DNA from: Patescibacteria group bacterium
GTDB taxonomy: Bacteria > Patescibacteriota > Minisyncoccia > Phycocordibacterales > UBA12079
Assembly (NCBI GenBank): GCA_018817595.1
Contig: JAHITU010000007.1
Span: 8,775 to 72,774, forward strand
Length of the DNA: 64,000 bases
Direction of reading: 5' to 3'
Of this stretch, positions 13,634-58,966 are shown piece after piece (positions within the stretch are counted from its first letter, which is position 1; each line of letters begins with the position of its first letter). Both the position numbers and the translations under genes were made by a program. Below the pieces are notes generated by a model. That model saw only the letters and a program-made list of their open reading frames with translations, was not told where the DNA came from and ran no database searches.

Positions 13634-15223
13634 ATGTTAGATATAAAATTTATAAGAGATAATAAAGAAGCTGTGCAAATGGGTGCTAAGAAAAAGCACA
13701 TTGATTTTGATGTAGAAAGATTATTAAAAGTAGATGATGAAAGAAAAGGAGCAGTGGCTTCTGTGGAAAGACTTAGAACTGAACAAAATATAATTTCAGA
13801 CAGAGTAGCCAAAACAGAACAATTTGCTCAAAAGGAATTGTTGATTGAACAATCTCAAAAACTAAAAGCCGAATTACAAAAATCAGAAGAGGAATTGAAA
13901 GACATAATGAATCGTTGGAAATTATTGATGCTACAAGTGCCCAATATTCCAGATATGTCAGTGCCAGAAGGAGAGTCAGATGAAGAAAATCAAGAAATCA
14001 AAGCTTGGGGAGAAAAAACATCTTTTGATTTTGAAGCCAAAGACCATGTTCAAATTATGAATGATTTGGAAATGGTAGATTTTGAAAGAGGAACAAAGAT
14101 TCATGGATTCAGAGGTTATTATCTTATAGGAGACGGAGCCAGACTTTCTTGGGCTATTTGGAATTATGCCAATGACTTTTTTGGAGCCAAAGGTTTTGTT
14201 CCAATGATTCCTCCTGCTATTGTGCGAAAAGAAAATCTTTATGGAACAGGACATTTACCTAATGATGCTGATGATGTTTATCAAACTCAAGACGAAGACT
14301 ATTTAATTGGAACAGCTGAAATTCCAGTAACAGGTTTCCATTCAGGAGAAATTTTAAAGGATACAGATTTACCTAAAAAATATTTAGGATTTTCTCCTTG
14401 TTTTAGAAGAGAGGCTGGAAGCCACGGCAGAGACACCAAAGGACTTATCCGAGTAAATGAATTTTTTAAAGTAGAACAAGTTATTCTGTGTGAAGCCAGT
14501 CACGAAGAGTCAGTTAAATGGCATGAATGGATAAATAGAAATACAGAAGAATTTATTGAGTCTTTAGGGATTCCTTATCATACAGTGATTAACTGTGGAG
14601 GGGACCTAGGACAAGGTCAGGTTAAAAAATACGATGTTGAATTATGGGTTCCAGGAGAACAAAAATATCGAGAAATTTCTTCAGCTTCATATTTTCATGA
14701 TTTTCAAGCCAGAAGATTTAACATTCGCTATAAGAAAGGCGAGGAGAAGGCCAAGTATGTGCATACTCTGAATTGTACTGCTATACCAACTCCTAGAATT
14801 TTAGTTTCTTTAGTGGAAAACTTTCAACAAGCTGATGGCTCTGTAAAGATTCCAGAAGCTCTTCAAAAATATATGGGAGGAAGAGAAGTAATTAAAAAAG
14901 AAATTCTTGAAGATAAAAAAGAAAAAATCGAAGAAAAACCTGTGCTTGATAATGAAGATATTCAAACCACTCAGCCAAAAGTTGTCGAAGAAATAACTCA
15001 AGAACAAAAACCTTTTGTAGAAGAACCAATTCAAAGACAGAAACAAGTAGAAATTCAAGAAAATAATACTGAAGAAAAACCTGTGTTTGATAATGAAGAT
15101 ATTCAAACAACTGATTTTGTTCAACAAAATCCGTCTATTGAAGAAGTCGAACAAACTCCAAATATAGAATTACCAATTCAAGAGGAAAATAAACCAGAAG
15201 ACTCAGAACAACTAAGATATTAA
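13634..15223 (+). CDS. serS: serine--tRNA ligase with acidic C-terminal extension
   Basis: MLDIKFIR, FRREAGSHGRDTKGLIRV, EISSAS, HTLN. Confidence 0.95.
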   Translation: MLDIKFIRDNKEAVQMGAKKKHIDFDVERLLKVDDERKGAVASVERLRTEQNIISDRVAKTEQFAQKELLIEQSQKLKAELQKSEEELKDIMNRWKLLMLQVPNIPDMSVPEGESDEENQEIKAWGEKTSFDFEAKDHVQIMNDLEMVDFERGTKIHGFRGYYLIGDGARLSWAIWNYANDFFGAKGFVPMIPPAIVRKENLYGTGHLPNDADDVYQTQDEDYLIGTAEIPVTGFHSGEILKDTDLPKKYLGFSPCFRREAGSHGRDTKGLIRVNEFFKVEQVILCEASHEESVKWHEWINRNTEEFIESLGIPYHTVINCGGDLGQGQVKKYDVELWVPGEQKYREISSASYFHDFQARRFNIRYKKGEEKAKYVHTLNCTAIPTPRILVSLVENFQQADGSVKIPEALQKYMGGREVIKKEILEDKKEKIEEKPVLDNEDIQTTQPKVVEEITQEQKPFVEEPIQRQKQVEIQENNTEEKPVFDNEDIQTTDFVQQNPSIEEVEQTPNIELPIQEENKPEDSEQLRY

Positions 15224-16974: not shown

Positions 16975-18102
16975 ATGTCAAATTTTTGGAAAAAAATAAA
17001 AGAAAACAAAAACTCCTCCTTCGCTGAAGCTTCGGCGAACAGGCCTTTTTTTGCATTGGCACCAATGTTGGATGTGACTGATTCGGCTTTTAGAGAAATA
17101 GTGGCTAAATATGGCAAACCAGATGTTTTGTGGACTGAGTTTGTTTCTTGTGATGGTATGTGTTCTGAGGGAAAAGAAAAATTAATGCACCTTTTGCATT
17201 ATACAGAAAAACAAAGACCGATTGTGGCTCAATTATTTGGGTCTAATCCAGAAAATTTTAAAAAAACTGCTCGCATTGTGGCTGAATTAGGATATGACGG
17301 AATTGATATAAATATGGGTTGTCCTCAAAAAACTATTCTTAAACAAGGAGCAGGGGCGTGTTTAATCTCCACTCCAGATTTAGCTCGAGAAATTATTAGA
17401 GCCACCAAGAAAGGAGCAGGGGATTTACCTGTGTCAGTCAAAACTAGAATTGGATATAAAGAAGACACATTAGAAGAATGGTTACCTGTAATTATAGAAG
17501 AAAAACCAGTGGCTATTACTGTTCATGGAAGGACTCAAAAAGAAATGTCTCAGGTGCCTGCTCGTTGGGATAGAATTAAAAAAGCAGTAGAAATGGCAAA
17601 AGGAACTGGGATTATAATGATTGGAAATGGAGATGTTAAATCTATTGAGGAGGGAATTGAGCGAGCCAAAGAATCAGGAGTGGACGGAGTAATGATTGGT
17701 CGCGGAATCTTCGGCAACCCATGGTTATTTAGTAGAAAATGCGGACAGGACGCTGATATATACAGAATTAACGCGGAAAAATTTGTAGGTACCGAGTACC
17801 TACAAATAGATAATGACTTGGACACCGGGTGTCCAAGTATTGAAGAAAAGTTAGGGGTTTTGATTGAACATATCGAATTGTATGAGAAATATTATGCTAA
17901 AGAATACAAAGAAGGGGATTGGGTCTTTAAGTCTTCTCGCTCTGATGGGCGAATAAAACCTTTTAATATGATGAAAAAACATATAGGAGCTTATGTAAAA
18001 GAATTCAAAGGAGCCAAAGAGCTAAGAATGGAATTAATGGAAACAGAAAGTGAAAAAGAAGCGGTAGATATTTTAAAAAAATATCTAAGATTTAAGATTT
18101 AA
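16975..18102 (+). CDS. dus: tRNA-dihydrouridine synthase
   Basis: LAPMLDVTD, QLFG, DINMGCP, VHGRT, GNGD, MIGRG. Confidence 0.92.
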   Translation: MSNFWKKIKENKNSSFAEASANRPFFALAPMLDVTDSAFREIVAKYGKPDVLWTEFVSCDGMCSEGKEKLMHLLHYTEKQRPIVAQLFGSNPENFKKTARIVAELGYDGIDINMGCPQKTILKQGAGACLISTPDLAREIIRATKKGAGDLPVSVKTRIGYKEDTLEEWLPVIIEEKPVAITVHGRTQKEMSQVPARWDRIKKAVEMAKGTGIIMIGNGDVKSIEEGIERAKESGVDGVMIGRGIFGNPWLFSRKCGQDADIYRINAEKFVGTEYLQIDNDLDTGCPSIEEKLGVLIEHIELYEKYYAKEYKEGDWVFKSSRSDGRIKPFNMMKKHIGAYVKEFKGAKELRMELMETESEKEAVDILKKYLRFKI

Positions 18103-18345
18103 GAATTATGATTTAAGAACGAATTTTACTCTGCAAAATAAATGAAAAGCCTGCGGACAGCCTGCCCACTCCTGCCGGCGCGCAGGGGCGGACAGGCGAC
18201 TTGAGGTGTTGGATTTCAACAATTTGGGCTTGATTTTTGGAGTAATGTCAGATATTCTAATTTAAAGAATAGTTCTGTTTTTCAATGTAATTTTTTAATT
18301 ATGTTGAAAATGTAATTTAACCTAGTAAATTAGAGGAGAGTATTT

Positions 18346-18582
18346 ATGGTTGGTTTATGTTGCTCTGGTAAGAAAAGAGGTGATAAGGGTGAGGGTTTAG
18401 GTTCTCATCCAGTTAGGCTTGATAAAAGTGAGGGTCGTTTGGTTGTTCTAAAAAGTCCAAATGGAACTTACACAGAATTCTTCAACCCTGATATTGCAAA
18501 ACCTATAGCTCAAACAGAAAGAAGAAAGGGGCAAGTTGGTCCAAATAGAGGACGAAGGTCTTTAGACCATCTTCAGATTTAA
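18346..18582 (+). CDS. small hypothetical protein (orphan, strong SD)
   Basis: gaggag SD; terminator at 18594-18629. Confidence 0.55.
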   Translation: MVGLCCSGKKRGDKGEGLGSHPVRLDKSEGRLVVLKSPNGTYTEFFNPDIAKPIAQTERRKGQVGPNRGRRSLDHLQI

Positions 18583-18629
18583 GAATCAAACAAAAAGCCC
18601 GTCAGCTGTGGTTAAGCTGACGGGATTTT

Positions 18630-19447
18630 ATTATGTTCTTTTATATCTATAAGCCGGATTCTGTTATCATCCGATCATTAAAAATGATTTAGGATAATAG
18701 ATAGTTATTTATCTGGATATATTGTCGCCAATATATCTCAAGCGGCACCCCCAGCACTTTGAGCATAAGCTCAAAAATTTTCAATTTACAATTTACAATT
18801 TTCAACCAATGAAATAATTTTCAATTTACAATGACGAATTTTGGCAGAGCCAAAATTCGTAAACATTGAACATTTAATCATTGAAAATTCATTGAGAATT
18901 GAAAATTGATTATTGGAAATTCTTTGTTTGCTTACAAACAAAGTGCTGGGTACGGCCTTGCATTTGGGTAAGGATTTAGCCGTTTCAATCTTCAAGTTTC
19001 CATGAAGCTAATCCCGAAGGATTCTGATTTTCTTTCGATTGTCAGCGTCTCTGTTCGCACCTCAGAAGCACCTCGCTATCGCTCGTTGCAGATTTAAGAA
19101 TATAGATTTAAGATTTAAGAGAAAAAATCACAAAGTGATTCTTCTGTTATCTTAATTCCTAATTCTTAAATCATAAATCTGTATCTCACGATAGTGAGAT
19201 GCTCCGACAGGTATTACCTGCTACCATTTTAACTAAGCACCTCGCTATCGCTCGTTGCAGATTTAAGAATATAGATTTAAGATTTAAGAGAAAAAATCAC
19301 AAAGTGATTTTTTATTTTCTTAATTCCTAATTCTTAAATCATAAATCTGTATCTCACGATAGTGAGATGCTTAAGTAAATGTCCGGACTTTCCTCCAAAT
19401 TTTTATAAATAAAAACTCGGCAACTATCCGATATAAAAGAACATAAT
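18630..19447 (-). ncRNA. rnpB: RNase P RNA with three large insertions
   Basis: minus strand GAGGAAAGTCCGGAC, AACAGAGAC, TGAAACGG, GCAAG, AGATAAAT, AACAGAATCCGGCTTAT; 18-bp P1 (18630-18647/19430-19447); TTGCTA-17-TATAAT promoter. Confidence 0.92.
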
Positions 19448-19663
19448 CACATTATACAATAAAATATAATATTTAGCAAAAGTTCATAAAAACTAAGTTG
19501 TGGATAATAAAATAACCATATATTCCAATATGTAGTATAATTGTTTAGGAAGTTAGGAAGTTAGGAAGTTAGGAAGTTAGGAATTAGTTAATTAGGAAAA
19601 AATTTACTTCGTAAATTTTTTAGCTAAAAACTAATAAGCTAACCCCTAATTAGCTAAACATTT

Positions 19664-20767
19664 ATGTCTAATAAAATAAAAACAGATAAAATATTCGCAT
19701 TTATAGTATTCCTACTGATTTCTTTTGGGTCTTTTTTATTCTTATCTGCTTCTATGGGTTTATTAGCAAAAGATAATGGAAATTTTCTTAATGTTTTTTT
19801 GAAACAAATTGGTTTTGGTCTAGGTGGGGGTTTAATTCTAATGTTTTTTTTGTCTAGATTAGATTATAGAAAATATAAAAAATATGCTTTTTATATTTTT
19901 CTCGGTTCTCTAATTATGTCCTGCCTAGTTTTTGTTCCAGGGATTGGTTTCGAACATGGAGGAGCGAAAAGATGGCTAGATATATTTGGTTTTTCTTTTC
20001 AACCTGCGGAATTATTAAAAATATCTTTTGTAGTATATTTTGCTGCTTTCTTATCTGCTTTTAAATCAAAATTGAATGATTGGAAGTATAGCATTTTACC
20101 TATTTTAATTTTATTATCTTTTGTTGCAGCTTTATCTTTTTTTCAACCAGATTACGGAACCTTAGTAATTATTATTATTACAGCCTTTGGAATGCTTTTG
20201 ACAGCTGAAGTTAATTTTAAACATCTAAGTATTATTATTGGTTCGGCAACATTGGCAGTTATCCCACTAGCTTTATATAAAACCTATATAATAGAAAGGT
20301 TATTAACTTTCCTAAGACCTGCTCAAGATGCTTTAGGGGCCTCTTATCAAATAAACCAATCATTAGTAGCTATTGGATCTGGAGGTTTTTGGGGAAAAGG
20401 TTTTGGTAAATCTGTTCAAAAGTTTGGGCTTTTACCAGAACCAATGGGTGATTCTATTTTCGCTGTGACTGCTGAGGAATGGGGTTTTGTAGGTTGTTTG
20501 TTTTTGATAACATTATTTTTATTGTTTGCAATAAGAGGTTTAAGGATTGCCACTCATTCAACAGATGTTTTTGGTAGACTATTAGCTATAGGTATTGTTA
20601 TACTAATAGTATCCCAGTCATTTATAAACATAGCCTCCATGTTAGGAATCTTCCCGATGATTGGAATGCCGTTAATTTTTGTTAGTCAGGGAGGAACGGC
20701 TTTGTTGTTTGCTTTGGCCGAGGTAGGTATTTTATTAAATATATCGAAATATAGTAAACAAAAATAA
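19664..20767 (+). CDS. ftsW: SEDS peptidoglycan polymerase FtsW
   Basis: GAKRWL, FQPAELLK, QPDYGT, DSIFAVTAEEWG; adjacent to murG. Confidence 0.92.
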   Translation: MSNKIKTDKIFAFIVFLLISFGSFLFLSASMGLLAKDNGNFLNVFLKQIGFGLGGGLILMFFLSRLDYRKYKKYAFYIFLGSLIMSCLVFVPGIGFEHGGAKRWLDIFGFSFQPAELLKISFVVYFAAFLSAFKSKLNDWKYSILPILILLSFVAALSFFQPDYGTLVIIIITAFGMLLTAEVNFKHLSIIIGSATLAVIPLALYKTYIIERLLTFLRPAQDALGASYQINQSLVAIGSGGFWGKGFGKSVQKFGLLPEPMGDSIFAVTAEEWGFVGCLFLITLFLLFAIRGLRIATHSTDVFGRLLAIGIVILIVSQSFINIASMLGIFPMIGMPLIFVSQGGTALLFALAEVGILLNISKYSKQK

Positions 20768-28797: not shown

Positions 28798-31416
28798 ATG
28801 ATAAATTCACAACAAATTTGGTATGGTCTTAATCAAAAGGATTTAGAAGAAAAACTAGATTCTGATATGGATAATGGATTATCAAATGAGCAGGTTTTTG
28901 AAAACCGCAGGAAATACGGTAAGAATGTTTTGTCCAAAAAAACTGAAATAGGTATTTTAAGAAAAATATTTAACAGTTTAAAAAGTCCTCTTAATCTTAT
29001 TTTAATAATTGCGGGGGCCACAGCTTTCTTTTTAGGTTCTACTGTGGATGCCTCTGTTGTATTTTTTGCTGTAATTATAAATGTGGTTGTAGGAATAATA
29101 CAGGAAGACAAGGCGGATAAAGCTTTTGAAAAATTAAATGTAGCTCAACATAAAAGTGCTACTGTAATCAGAGAAGGAAAACAAAAAGTTATTTCTGCCA
29201 AAGATTTAGTTCTTGGAGATTTAGTTATTCTCAGGGCTGGAATGTATATTCCCGCTGATATCCGTTTAATAGAAGATAAAGATCTCTTAGCTAACGAATC
29301 AGTTTTGACTGGAGAATGGATGGGTGTTATCAAAAAATCAGATATTTTAGAAGACAAGGATTTACCTTTAACTAGTCAAACTAATATGTTGTGGATGGGA
29401 ACTGTAGTTTCTGCTGGTTACGGAAAAGGTTTGGTTGTTAAAATTGGTAAAGATACTGAATTGGGGAAAATTTCAAAATCACTTTCTGATTATGAAAGGA
29501 TTACGCCGATGAAAAGAAAAATGGATAGACTGGTTCGCTTTTTGATGATAACTGTTTTGTCTGCTACGGCTGTGATTTTTATCCTAGGGGTTGCTAAAGG
29601 GGAGTCTTATGTTGATATGCTTCTTATTGCTATCGCTGTTGCAATTGCAGTTATACCTGAAGGTTTACCTATTGCTACCACTTCTGTTTTAGCAGTAGGA
29701 ATGAAAGAAATATTAAAAAAAGGAGGTTTGGTGAAAAATCTTTTAGCTTCAGAGACACTAGGAAATGTTTCTGTTATTTTAACTGATAAGACTGGAACTA
29801 TTACAGAAGCCAAGATGAAATTAGCTGAGGTTATAACCTTAACAAACTCTAAAGAAGATAATCACGAAGCCTTAAAAAAAGGGGTATTGAGTTCAGATGC
29901 TTTTGTTGAAGTAGGAAGAAAATCAGAAGTCATTGTACAAGGACGCCCCTTAGAGAAAGCCATAGTTTCAGCAGGTTTAGAAGCAGGAATTTCTCAAAGT
30001 GAACTAGAAACAGAAAATAAAAGACTAGATTTATTATTATTTTCTTCAAAAAATGGATATGCAATTTCCTTAAATAAACTTGAGGGAGATAAACGCAGGG
30101 AATACATTGGGGGACGTCCAGAAAGGATTTTAGAAAAGTCTAAATATATTTTTGAAAATGGAAATAAAAGAGAAATCACTGAAAAAGATAAAAAGTATTT
30201 TTTACAAATTTTAACTGAAAAAACTGATTTAGGTATGAGATTAACAGCTCAAGCTTATAGAGATGTCAAAAAAGATAAAATACTTGATGAATCTCTAGAA
30301 AATTTAGTCTTTGTGGCTTTATTTGCTTTTGATGATCCTGTTAGAAAAGGGGTAAAGGAATCTATTGAAACTACTAAAAAGTTAGGAGTGAGAACTATTA
30401 TGTTAACAGGGGATTATGCAGGAACTGCTAGAAATATTGCTGAGGAAGTTGGTATTATAGAAAAGGGAGGAAGGGTATTAAGAGGAGAGGATATTGATAA
30501 AATGAATGATGAAGAATTAGAAGAAGTATTAAAAGAAGTAAATGCTTTTGCTCGAATGGATCCTAGTCAAAAATTGCGAATTTCTAAGAAATTAAAAGCT
30601 ATGGGAGAAATCATTGCTATGACTGGGGACGGAATAAATGATGCTCCTGCTCTAAGAAATGCTGATGTGGGTATGGCCGTGGAATCAGGCACAGAAGTAG
30701 CTAAGGAATCGGCTGATTTGATTCTCTTAGATAATTCTTTTTCGGTTATAGTCTTTGCAGTAGAGGAAGGTAGAAGAATTATTGATAATTTGAAAAAAAT
30801 TACTGCTTATCTTTTATCCACTTCTTTTTCAGAAGTTTTCATTGTAGCCGGTTCTTTGTTTTTTGGTTTACCTTTACCTATTTTAGCTTCTCAAATTTTG
30901 TGGATAAATATTATTGAAGAAGGTTTTATGAATTTTGCCTTTGTCTTTGAACCAAAAGAGGTTTATTTAAAAAGTAAAAAAGACAGAACTCATAATGTTG
31001 AAATCTTAACCCCTCGTTTGAGAAATATGATAACAATGATTGCAGTGATTACAGGTTCATTTTTGATAGTTTTCTATTATATTTTGATAAAATTAGAATT
31101 ACCTATGGATGAAATTCGCACTATTATGTTTGTAGCTCTTTCTATTGATTCTTTGTTTTTTGCCCTTTCTCTTAAATCATTACATAAGCCTATTTGGAAG
31201 ATAAATATTTTTTCAAATAAATATTTGATAATTTCTTGGGTTTTGAGCTTGTCTCTTATTTTAGCAGGTATCTATGTGCCTTTCTTGCAATTTATTTTGC
31301 ATACAGTCCCATTAAATATTTTTGACTTTTGGATTATGATTTTACTCGGAATTTTCAACCTAGCATTAATTGAAGGAGCTAAATATATATTTTTTGAGAA
31401 AGGAAATAACTCATAA
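28798..31416 (+). CDS. cation-transporting P-type ATPase (P2 type)
   Basis: PEGL, DKTGT, MLTGD, TGDGINDAPAL. Confidence 0.93.
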   Translation: MINSQQIWYGLNQKDLEEKLDSDMDNGLSNEQVFENRRKYGKNVLSKKTEIGILRKIFNSLKSPLNLILIIAGATAFFLGSTVDASVVFFAVIINVVVGIIQEDKADKAFEKLNVAQHKSATVIREGKQKVISAKDLVLGDLVILRAGMYIPADIRLIEDKDLLANESVLTGEWMGVIKKSDILEDKDLPLTSQTNMLWMGTVVSAGYGKGLVVKIGKDTELGKISKSLSDYERITPMKRKMDRLVRFLMITVLSATAVIFILGVAKGESYVDMLLIAIAVAIAVIPEGLPIATTSVLAVGMKEILKKGGLVKNLLASETLGNVSVILTDKTGTITEAKMKLAEVITLTNSKEDNHEALKKGVLSSDAFVEVGRKSEVIVQGRPLEKAIVSAGLEAGISQSELETENKRLDLLLFSSKNGYAISLNKLEGDKRREYIGGRPERILEKSKYIFENGNKREITEKDKKYFLQILTEKTDLGMRLTAQAYRDVKKDKILDESLENLVFVALFAFDDPVRKGVKESIETTKKLGVRTIMLTGDYAGTARNIAEEVGIIEKGGRVLRGEDIDKMNDEELEEVLKEVNAFARMDPSQKLRISKKLKAMGEIIAMTGDGINDAPALRNADVGMAVESGTEVAKESADLILLDNSFSVIVFAVEEGRRIIDNLKKITAYLLSTSFSEVFIVAGSLFFGLPLPILASQILWINIIEEGFMNFAFVFEPKEVYLKSKKDRTHNVEILTPRLRNMITMIAVITGSFLIVFYYILIKLELPMDEIRTIMFVALSIDSLFFALSLKSLHKPIWKINIFSNKYLIISWVLSLSLILAGIYVPFLQFILHTVPLNIFDFWIMILLGIFNLALIEGAKYIFFEKGNNS

Positions 31417-31497: not shown

Positions 31498-32478
31498 TTA
31501 GTCTTTATCTTCAGGTTTCCAACCGTCCATTTCTTGGATCCTTTCGGTTTGTGCCTTTAAGGATTTCAAAGCTTCTTCCATCGTAGTCATCAATTCTGTG
31601 AATGTCGTTTTTTGGCTATGAAGAGATTCAGCTGTTTCGTTCTCAATAAATTTGATTTCAGTACCAAGACTTTTACAGATACGAATGACAGCTCTCATGG
31701 TTTGTTCTGTCGATGAAAGTTGTCTTTTCTGACCGCCTCTTCTAGAACGTCTTTTAATTCCGTGTTTTTCAGCAGCGGCTGTGAAAATTCTATTTAGAAA
31801 ATTTGGATGAAGCTTAATTGTTTCAGCCTTTTTTCCTAATTCCTCGGCTTTATCTTTACGGACTTCTAACCACAGATCATACATCATATCTTGATGATTT
31901 TCTTTAAAAGCAGCAATCATTAGAGCGATTCCATTATCAAGTTCCTCTGTTATAACCTTTTTTCTTAGAGATTCTTTTAGACGTAAAAGTTTAAGAGTAT
32001 TGCTTACAAACCCTTGGCTAAAACCAGAAACTTCTGCTACTTCGGATTGGTTTAAATTATAATCTTTCATTAATTGTTCAAAACCAATTGCAATTTCCAT
32101 TAAGGACATATCTGTCCTTTGTGTATTTGCTATAAAGCTTCTTTTATATACTTCTTTGTCTTCCATTTGGGGTTTGATAAGGCAAGAAATTTTAGTAAAG
32201 TTGTTTATCTTTGCTCCTCTAAAACGACATTCTCCATCAATAATCAGAACAAAACCATCACGTACGGTTACATTAATAGGAATTTCAACATCCCCTGCAT
32301 CCTTCATAGAATTTGCTTTCTTTTGCAGTTCACTTAACTTGAATTCTTTTCGGGGTTGCTCAGAGTTCCTTTTAATTAACCGAATTGGTATTTCAACAAC
32401 CATCCCTGGTTTGAGAGAATCTAAAAATTTCTGATCTTCTCTTCTCTGTTTTTCTGTATTTATTGCCACGACATTCAT
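31498..32478 (-). CDS. ParB/Spo0J-family protein (orphan)
   Basis: QPRKEF, IIDGECRFRG, ANTQRTDMS, HTH; start MNVVAIN preceded by aaggag. Confidence 0.8.
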   Translation of the reverse strand: MNVVAINTEKQRREDQKFLDSLKPGMVVEIPIRLIKRNSEQPRKEFKLSELQKKANSMKDAGDVEIPINVTVRDGFVLIIDGECRFRGAKINNFTKISCLIKPQMEDKEVYKRSFIANTQRTDMSLMEIAIGFEQLMKDYNLNQSEVAEVSGFSQGFVSNTLKLLRLKESLRKKVITEELDNGIALMIAAFKENHQDMMYDLWLEVRKDKAEELGKKAETIKLHPNFLNRIFTAAAEKHGIKRRSRRGGQKRQLSSTEQTMRAVIRICKSLGTEIKFIENETAESLHSQKTTFTELMTTMEEALKSLKAQTERIQEMDGWKPEDKD

Positions 32479-51749: not shown

Positions 51750-51821
51750 AGAAAACCACCGAACCTATCCTTGCGGAACGCAGTGATAAACACTACAGTT
51801 TGGTTCGGTGGCACTTCCTTA
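51750..51821 (-). ncRNA. DUF3800-associated structured RNA (candidate)
   Basis: 10-bp basal stem ccaccgaacc/ggttcggtgg enclosing two hairpins, GCAA tetraloop and U-G wobble on the minus strand, TTGATT/TATAGT promoter. Confidence 0.65.
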
Positions 51822-58273: not shown

Positions 58274-58966
58274 ATGCCTGATTACGAAAAATTTGCCGAA
58301 AAAATAAATATCAAATTTAATAATATTAAATTACTACAAACTGCCTTTACTCACAGGTCTTATTTAAATGAGCATAAAGGAAAAGACTTAGAACATAACG
58401 AGAGATTTGAATTCTTAGGAGATGCAGTTTTAGAATTAGTTACAACTTATCATTTATTTGAAAAGTTTCCAGATGAAAAAGAAGGAGTCTTAACTTCTTA
58501 TCGTTCAGCTATAGTGAACACCACTTCTTTATTGAGAGTAGCCGAGGAATTAGGAGTAAATGATTATTTGTTATTATCAAAAGGGGAAGCAAAAGATACA
58601 GGAAGAGCTAGAAATTTTATTGTGGCAAATGTTATCGAAGCAATTATAGGAGCTATTTATATAGACCAAGGTTACGATTCCGCAGCTAAATTTATTGATA
58701 CATATTTCTTGTCTATTACTGATGATGTAGTAGAGAATTCATTATGGCAAGATGCCAAGAGTCATTTCCAAGAAAAAGCCCAAGAATTTGAAAAAGCGAC
58801 ACCAAGTTACGAAACAATAGAAGAAGTTGGACCTGATCATGATAAAAAATTCAAAGTAGGGGTATTCATTAGAAATAAACTTATCGCAGAGGGAAGTGGA
58901 GTTTCTAAACAAGAAGCCGAACAAATCGCAGCTAAGAATGCTTTAGAAGCGAAACAATGGCAGTAA
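58274..58966 (+). CDS. rnc: ribonuclease III
   Basis: NERFEFLGDAVL, dsRBD GPDH...SKQEAEQ. Confidence 0.96.
   Translation: MPDYEKFAEKINIKFNNIKLLQTAFTHRSYLNEHKGKDLEHNERFEFLGDAVLELVTTYHLFEKFPDEKEGVLTSYRSAIVNTTSLLRVAEELGVNDYLLLSKGEAKDTGRARNFIVANVIEAIIGAIYIDQGYDSAAKFIDTYFLSITDDVVENSLWQDAKSHFQEKAQEFEKATPSYETIEEVGPDHDKKFKVGVFIRNKLIAEGSGVSKQEAEQIAAKNALEAKQWQ

Follow-up and report, generated by a model that had tools for sequence, protein, structure and literature searches.

How an essential ribozyme comes to be more than twice as long as expected, where the additional sequence originated, and whether it stays in the RNA are the questions raised by a single locus in the window, a stretch of 64,000 nucleotides from a Patescibacteria group bacterium. 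The sequence-only reading of this DNA had proposed an RNase P RNA of about 820 nt, enlarged by three hairpin insertions. The genome assembly that contains the window (G000) comprises 815,563 bp in 34 contigs, with 31.5% G+C and a completeness of 97%.

The RNase P RNA gene, rnpB, occupies window positions 18631–19446 on the minus strand and measures 816 nt from P1 to P1. The conserved segments had been described as lying in order on this strand, and motif matching places each there once: CR-I at 19395–19382, CR-II at 19060–19047, CR-III at 18987–18980, CR-IV at 18714–18700 and CR-V at 18665–18650. The P1 arms form an inverted repeat (5′ strand 19446–19430, 3′ strand 18647–18631) in which 17 of 17 positions pair. 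No ORF of more than 44 codons was found in the CR-I to CR-V span. On one side the gene is neighboured by a Dus-family gene and a convergent short ORF, on the other by divergent ftsW. A sigma-70-like promoter (TTGCTA-17-TATAAT, 19451–19479, minus, 10/12 matches) ends 5 nt before P1; its predicted start, at about 19445, coincides with the 5′ end of that helix. Promoter-like sites are not commoner here than in shuffled sequence (3 found vs a mean of 5.2); a comparable site stands at the equivalent position in the genus relatives G002, G004 and G005. Downstream, an intrinsic-terminator-like hairpin of 10 bp, 7 of them G-C, is followed by a U tail (18590–18624, minus). In the surroundings, an arm of the type found in inserts A and B (see below) overlaps the 3′ end of the Dus gene (18074–18118), and the stretch from rnpB to ftsW contains an 8-nt tandem repeat (19545–19584). 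Elsewhere in the window, SerRS (13634–15223) carries an acidic repetitive C-terminal extension of ~110 aa past its TIGR00414 match.

The suspicion that standard annotation may overlook this gene proved justified. RF00010 scores 28.3 bits against a gathering score of 100, matching the 3′ 181 nt only, and an Rfam scan of the whole window at gathering level misses rnpB. Matches to TD-2, Ref1C, MIR859, PreQ1 and RsaJ near the gene fall far under their cut-offs and were discarded as chance. A DUF3800-IX RNA motif (51751–51812, minus) does exceed its gathering score, and the tmRNA of G000 is called at 422 nt. A second rnpB, which would have spoken against the earlier reading, was not found in the 34-contig assembly by Rfam, motif or profile: RF00010 matches once, the CR-I and CR-V motifs occur in single copies, and a profile of ten short relatives matched the rnpB locus alone, in four ordered pieces (19438–19369, 19233–19204, 19067–18935 and 18756–18637). 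The genome also encodes rnpA in an open frame (PF00825, 56.6 bits).

Core pairing is intact throughout. Besides P1, all enforced pairs are standard in P2 (8/8), P5 (5/5), P7 (5/5), P8 (4/4), P15 (3/3) and P18 (9/9); the fold with forced core helices lies 9.5 kcal/mol above the unconstrained minimum and keeps inserts A, B and C as local hairpins. Following the minus strand from its 5′ end, the P2 5′ strand and a short P3 hairpin occupy 19395–19429 (P2 at 19422–19429 pairs with 18699–18706), CR-I with the P4 5′ strand and the P5 5′ strand 19377–19395 (P5 at 19377–19381 pairs with 18961–18965), and the P7 5′ strand with P8 19208–19225 (P7 pairs with 18967–18971). CR-II, three consecutive native hairpins of the P12 region and CR-III follow at 18980–19060, then the P15 5′ strand and the 5′ side of L15 at 18951–18959, assigned by motif and pairing. 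The L15 GGU (18747–18749), the P15 3′ strand, GCUUGAG and P18 with a GCGA loop of the GNRA type span 18716–18749, and CR-IV, the P2 3′ strand, P19 and CR-V with the P4 3′ strand span 18650–18714, assigned by Rfam match and motif. The P4 pseudoknot with its bulged U is present, and its CR-I/CR-V covariation is concordant in 11 of 11 aligned rows, GUCCGGA being combined with UCCGGCUU in four rows (the window included) and GUCCGAA with UUCGGCUU in seven. All invariant columns of this alignment are kept in the window gene.

The architecture does not fit the established classes. P13 and P14 are absent after CR-III in all 11 aligned rows, where CR-III runs straight into the P11/P10 3′ strand. P16 with the L15 GGU, a class A trait, is present as one long hairpin (baseline segment 38 nt), while P17 and the P6 pseudoknot were not seen by inspection; the full-length gene, inserts included, stays below the class A threshold of RF00010 (100 bits). 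Class B is defined, in Table 3 of PMC2858038, by P5.1, P10.1 and P15.1 without P16. The window RNA does have a hairpin at the P5.1 site, but P10.1 and P15.1 would not fit and P16 occurs, so that the structure departs from class B (RF00011). With P13/P14 missing, it does not count as canonical class A either. Between CR-II and CR-III it shows three consecutive hairpins (18989–19046, minus) instead of a single P12. The same arrangement was seen in most of the loci L003–L202, in 95 of 102 genes with a 55–80-nt segment, with a GNRA loop in the first hairpin in 92/95 and in the third in 76/95. The second and third hairpins may substitute in function, from a new position, for the absent P13/P14. The accessible text of PMC8172020 makes no mention of a three-hairpin P12 region.

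Three long hairpins are found within this layout. Insert A (19235–19371, minus, 137 nt) is a 51-bp hairpin at the J5/7 (P5.1) site, built from a GC-richer shell, AT-rich heptamer-repeat arms and a 3-nt tip loop. Insert B (19066–19203, minus, 138 nt), likewise a 51-bp hairpin, stands in place of P9 and its usual GNRA loop. Insert C (18750–18950, minus, 201 nt) is a 76-bp hairpin in place of P16, closed by CCCAGCACTTTG/CAAAGTGCTGGG. A and B had been called near-identical and self-complementary, and they are 97% identical, with four clustered differences in 138 columns, at a distance of 169 nt; their folding z-scores are −9.7 and −8.7. C, correctly recognised as bounded by an inverted repeat, has a z-score of −8.5, and 0/200 shuffles fold as well as the inserts. 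Uninterrupted stacks within the stems reach at most 10–12 bp. The J5/7, P9 and P16 segments measure 155, 165 and 217 nt in the window, against medians of 27, 36 and 38 nt among the parsed genes described below. Thus, the inserts replace native helices rather than interrupt them. This changes the earlier account in two respects. The proposed sites (P5.1, P9 and the P15 region) are right, the third being precisely P16 with the L15 GGU kept, but the native helices there are replaced. Similarly, the ~340 nt said to remain without the inserts is correct as arithmetic (818−137−138−201 = 342), but these deletions take native helices too, and the native-equivalent RNA is ~380 nt. With ~436 nt of extra sequence, “more than doubled” still holds.

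Short P9 helices carry a GNRA loop in 86 of 97 cases. As B replaces this loop, the L9–P1 contact should be lost. According to the accessible part of PMC8457005, that contact contributes little in the type A RNAs tested and its loss is nearly silent in other bacteria, the L8–P4 and L18–P8 contacts mattering most. P8, and P18 with its GCGA loop, are intact in the window gene.

A decaying gene, or inserts that are introns spliced out with religation, could each be argued from the very low Rfam score; a 34-contig assembly could hide a second rnpB, and introns are described as common in CPR rRNA genes (PMC11270868, in part). We regard either version as highly improbable, in view of the conservation of every invariant column and core pair and of the promoter-like and terminator-like sites. 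Furthermore, a search of 17500–20500 yielded no Rfam intron family at E values up to 1, and exact removal of the inserts would delete P9 and P16.

The origin of the extra sequence is found within the genome itself: all three outer helices (the J5/7 hairpin, P9 and P16) are built from its own palindromic repeat families. The ends of insert C recur as 28 inverted CCCAGCACTTTG..CAAAGTGCTGGG pairs in G000 (C and 27 other sites), mostly of 91–96 bp and all of at most 235 bp, and none of the 28 lies inside an ORF of at least 90 aa. One pair encloses an insert in the single 16S rRNA gene (G000:C14:23607–23841, L220). This insert of 235 nt has C-type ends in the orientation opposite to C and replaces the loop of a helix near model position 1160 of the 16S rRNA, which we take to be helix 40. 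It aligns with C at 70% identity over 241 columns, compared to at most 53% for shuffles. Over 148 nt, the inner part of C shares 87% identity with a hairpin lying between genes on contig C7. A larger repeat, CGTCTyTGCGA-[slot]-GAAGCArTCCAG, has 66 hits in G000; a C-type hairpin fills the slot in 14 of them, and two further slots hold GCGATAGC, a mini-hairpin that also occurs in the 3′ shell of A and B. The C-type copies resemble MITEs in being dispersed, non-coding and bounded by terminal inverted repeats. Inspection by eye found no direct repeat, i.e. no target-site duplication, flanking the 28 copies, most of which sit in the fixed slot of the larger repeat.

For the AT-rich inner arms of A and B, G000 contains many matching intergenic hairpins, and the arm motif gives 66 raw hits compared to 27 in a reversed control. 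The arms also match the inverted arms around a 23S_rRNA_IVP gene (G000:C34:10509–10823). This is one of five such four-helix-bundle genes, all outside rRNA (the others at C20:31841–32152, C31:20526–20834, C14:3479–3784 and C21:23984–24292). Judged by eye, four of the five are wrapped in inverted heptamer-repeat arms, and the arms of three other IVP genes match rnpB inserts of G002, G003, G005, G010 and G014; the C14 copy has an internal stop. Three near-identical A/B-type hairpins (G000:C7:28928–29059, 31275–31404 and 31753–31876) lie between genes of an apparent ribosomal-protein cluster. Elements behind tRNA genes at C2:26830, C20:815, C20:2317, C28:1604, C30:10353 and C30:20758 carry GAGCGATAGCGA, a motif shared with the 3′ shell of inserts A and B, and are bounded by a repeat of the tRNA 3′ arm. 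By a rough test, 7 of the 40 tRNA genes in G000 have CCA at the 3′ end.

It is very probable that the window locus is a working rnpB with repeat-derived helices, whether the hairpins are retained or not; its activity is a prediction from sequence.

The CR-I motif turned up in 58 of 61 genomes; matches in G015 and G022 that lie within coding DNA were rejected as chance hits. Records matching a 19-nt CR-III motif belong mostly to Patescibacteria, Paceibacterota, Nomurabacteria and Saccharibacteria, with a few Elusimicrobia and chance matches. Of 191 loci examined, 156 were parsed, the remaining 35 being chance matches, contig ends or motif variants; 40 loci with only 300 nt per side (L163–L202) were left out of the unbiased length figure. 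The CR-I to CR-V span ranges from 233 to 920 nt among relatives and is 746 nt in the window. Five other genus members have spans of 391, 410, 592, 651 and 920 nt, and 10 of 13 other family members 285–811 nt. Medians are 368 nt for the 36 genes at order level and 309 nt for 69 of the 80 named loci with full flanks, seven of which reach at least 500 nt. Large rnpB genes are thus nothing unusual in this genus and family; the window gene belongs to the upper length tail without being unique, since four of the other 155 parsed genes exceed it. L012 (G057) and L036 (G004) extend over 878 and 920 nt from CR-I to CR-V; L012 has a long P3 insert too, and its total is likely >1,000 nt.

For 20 chosen loci (15 from the genus or family, three long, two short) the Rfam cut-off was reached by four. 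The short relatives score 101–129 bits on RF00010, while L036 and L012 give no match at E 0.001. At genus and family level 2 of 15 genes pass, the window gene not among them. This failure explains why rnpB seems to be missing from many CPR genomes.

Extensions occur at six sites among relatives (P3, J5/7, P9, the P12 region, P16 and P19), which marks these as places where an essential ribozyme can accommodate additional sequence, as much as ~310 nt at a single site. In 97 of 137 genes the P7–P9 segment measures 35–36 nt. Within the family, the A/B shell is found again at P3, J5/7, P9 and P16, and the baseline P9 is kept in no genus member. Both observations could be read as signs that the extensions are adaptive, long helices replacing lost contacts (P6, P13/P14, L9–P1) or binding protein; a Deinococcus P9 extension is described to act through a pseudoknot (PMC8457005, in part). 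We consider an adaptive role very unlikely, however. Length, inner sequence and module type vary at 95–98% core identity, the tips are generic 3-nt loops in both orientations, and the family member G012, with a 285-nt core, has none of the long hairpins.

Modules are in fact exchanged rapidly between close relatives. L203 is 98% identical to the window gene in the core from CR-II to P15 and has different P9 arms and a different P16 module. G004, at 95% core identity, has a P16 that is 74% identical to C, and a C-type hairpin at J5/7. Exact internal repeats of 29–128 nt between two sites were found in 7 of 33 long genes. Insert A has counterparts at its own site in G005 (82% identity) and L203 (71%). 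Insert B has no counterpart above 67% among relatives and is therefore likely a recent copy of A into an existing shell. As additional relatives, a metagenome scan for P9-insert junctions, aimed at RNA-derived contigs or P9 inserts with an ORF, returned three loci, all on contigs of at least 22 kb. As an alternative to recent copying, insert B could be an assembly artefact, with the A sequence misplaced at P9 through the shared shell. Such an error is conceivable for elements this similar and this close in a 34-contig assembly, and the close relative L203 does have other inner arms at P9. Yet the four clustered differences between A and B could not be created by collapse, and same-gene duplications occur in independent genomes, e.g. 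a 128-nt exact repeat between P9 and P16 in G010. We therefore rate an artefact as extremely unlikely.

Candidate agents for the spread of the repeats are small GIY-YIG nuclease genes. P16 of G060 (L027/L212) and of JBAYVZ010000003.1 (L148) contains a sense-strand GIY-YIG ORF (PF01541, 64 and 72 bits) closed by arms of the CCCCCACCACTTT type (CCCCCAC-type). Altogether, five relatives have an 81–85-aa gene of GIY-YIG type in P16, two of them Pfam-confirmed and three (L215, L217 and L218) recognised by eye. Among 401 order-level genomes, CCCCCACCACTTT-type arms were present at P16 in 10; four of these enclose an 81–85-aa ORF (G060 and the three identified by eye), four are short and gene-less as parsed, and two that did not close in the parse look short by eye. 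The arms resemble the ends of C via intermediates such as CCCAGCACCACTTT in G002, a likeness of ~10 nt only with a 3-nt gap. Given so short a match, the mobiliser step is one that we infer. No nuclease or transposase gene with exactly the ends of insert C was found in G000 among all 28 end pairs. A 99-aa GIY-YIG gene in G000 (C7:10124–10423, PF01541, 56.7 bits) has the slot-bearing CGTCTyTGCGA repeat on both flanks. A second small GIY-YIG gene (G000:C2:27072–27284) lies directly upstream of tRNA-Asn and is preceded by a partial copy of the 5′ end of that tRNA, interrupted by a GC-rich palindrome. Searching for transposases of the Y1 family only, Y1_Tnp gave five hits in G000, and the four flanks viewed carry other palindromes. 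Y1 (IS200/RAYT-like) genes lie at C7:877–1635, near C11:52019–52240 and at C32:453–680, those on C7 and C11 each amid their own GC-rich palindromes, and an IS200-type gene is split across both ends of contig C7 (C7:2–268 with C7:45775–45993). The Ssn nucleases characterised so far are described to cleave ssDNA at the hairpin repeats that flank them (Chenal et al. 2025, PMC11893778, in part). The published SRM pattern has 0 hits in G000 and one in the reversed control, and the insert-related repeats were not filed as SRMs.

The remaining question is what happens to the hairpins in the transcript. We place an even measure of confidence in the reading that the only RNase P RNA gene found in G000, with three outer helices built from repeats, gives a ribozyme that works with its hairpins attached. 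The repeats would spread at the DNA level, probably nicked or mobilised by small GIY-YIG nucleases, and would be copied between helices by recombination between shared shells, as B probably was from A in recent times. They would persist only where they fold on themselves and spare the L8–P4 and L18–P8 contacts. The product would be one RNA of ~850 nt, terminator included, which binds RnpA and trims pre-tRNA. That its hairpins are mostly retained rather than excised is the weakest step of this proposal. In favour of it are a continuum of lengths down to hairpins of 20–60 nt with the same ends, the short uninterrupted stacks and the nearly silent effect of losing L9–P1 elsewhere. Among 66 long rnpB segments, 51 fold better as the sense strand, compared to 64 of 106 intergenic hairpins; as the intergenic control is biased too (p = 0.04), and kinship and mutational bias confound the comparison, this is at best a weak sign of RNA-level selection, and it was rejected as proof.

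Conversely, RNase III could excise the three hairpins without religation, with gene and origin as proposed, leaving a four-piece ribozyme held together by pairing and RnpA. Hairpins of 51–76 bp have the size of known RNase III-excised intervening sequences, and those considered here measure 51, 51 and 76 bp. The RNase III gene reported at 58274 is indeed intact (rnc, 58274–58966, plus; TIGR02191, 247.8 bits vs a cut-off of 166), and the repeat family of C is shared with the 235-nt insert at a helix tip of the 16S rRNA. Arms matching the inner ones of A and B enclose 23S_rRNA_IVP genes, whose family is known from 23S IVSs that are excised, and RNase III IVS status has been proposed for short non-intron CPR rRNA inserts (both PMC11270868, in part). 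Active complexes can form again from pieces of E. coli RNase P RNA that are themselves inactive (PMC11143913, in part). Release would presumably also ease translation of the sense-strand P16 nuclease ORFs of relatives. On the other hand, the stems are interrupted every 12 bp or less, and short forms with the same ends, too small to cut, occupy the same sites. Furthermore, 106 long-hairpin intergenic stretches between co-directional ORFs, a few of which overlap rRNA or tRNA genes, suggest that such hairpins are tolerated. We consider excision less likely than retention, but a real possibility. We know of no natural fragmented bacterial RNase P RNA. In a broader and rather unlikely scenario, the rnpB of Patescibacteria would be a home for IVS-like mobile hairpins, in which nuclease cassettes and their gene-less derivatives move among rnpB, rRNA and intergenic DNA and RNase III clips them. 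If true, the ribozyme of this organism would consist of four separate RNA pieces, a first among natural bacterial RNase P RNAs. The present findings tie the unexplained short CPR rRNA insertions, the wrappers of IVP genes, small GIY-YIG cassettes and RNase P extensions to shared repeat families.

Extended helices in CPR RNase P RNAs are already published. Lui et al. (2021, PMC8172020) describe such RNAs with “large extensions of helices” that are missed at Rfam thresholds. The window gene agrees with them in gene, inferred lineage and sub-threshold score and, according to the accessible text, in the lack of P13 and P14 and in an extension of the P15 region; P17, which is missing there as well, was not seen by inspection in the window gene. 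That text is without lengths, repeat origin, a link to rRNA inserts or nuclease cassettes, and here three sites are extended at once; a supplementary figure of PMC8172020 could show a comparable case. No paper on a repeat origin or on nuclease cassettes of CPR RNase P RNA was found in a search that covered subscription journals thinly, and literature combining RNase P with GIY-YIG concerned, among the matches listed, organellar genomes only.

Genome-wide short repeats inside rnpB have a precedent in the STRR repeats of heterocyst-forming cyanobacteria (Vioque 1997, from the reference list of PMC2858038). In both cases, short tandem repeats found throughout the genome have entered the same gene. 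The cyanobacterial STRR are said to sit in one helix as plain tandem heptamers, whereas in the present case three helices, a nested palindromic architecture and the exchange of whole modules are involved. The Ssn/SRM system (PMC11893778, in part) shares with G000 a small single-domain GIY-YIG gene that has a dispersed hairpin repeat starting with CGTC on both flanks. Here, the variable slot of that repeat often holds C-type hairpins. In the accessible text on Ssn, mobility is not demonstrated and no repeats inside stable-RNA genes are reported, and its published SRM pattern is the one without hits in G000. Rickettsia palindromic elements and prokaryotic MITEs (PMC10969869 and PMC3184786, in part) likewise are dispersed palindromes of 100–200 bp tolerated in functional genes; the accessible main text of neither review contains RNase P. 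Unlike those elements, the 28 C-type copies avoid ORFs, and neither a target-site duplication nor a cognate transposase was found for them.

Further parallels are inserts in rRNA. RNase III-cut IVSs, as in Salmonella and Coxiella (PMC11270868, in part), are also long imperfect stem-loops that replace a small helix, are sporadic among close relatives and occur where RNase III is present. Short non-intron inserts in CPR 16S and 23S rRNA (Tsurumaki et al. 2024, PMC11270868) resemble those in the window gene in their position at a helix tip, their length below 250 nt and their lack of an intron signature; they are associated with 23S_rRNA_IVP and GIY-YIG genes, as here. In its accessible main text that study is confined to rRNA, with “RNase P” appearing 0 times, and excision is proposed, not demonstrated. 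Unlike the rRNA IVSs, the inserts described here reside in RNase P RNA and consist of a genome-wide repeat, and insert C, through its direct homologue in the 16S gene of the same genome, links them to the CPR rRNA inserts.
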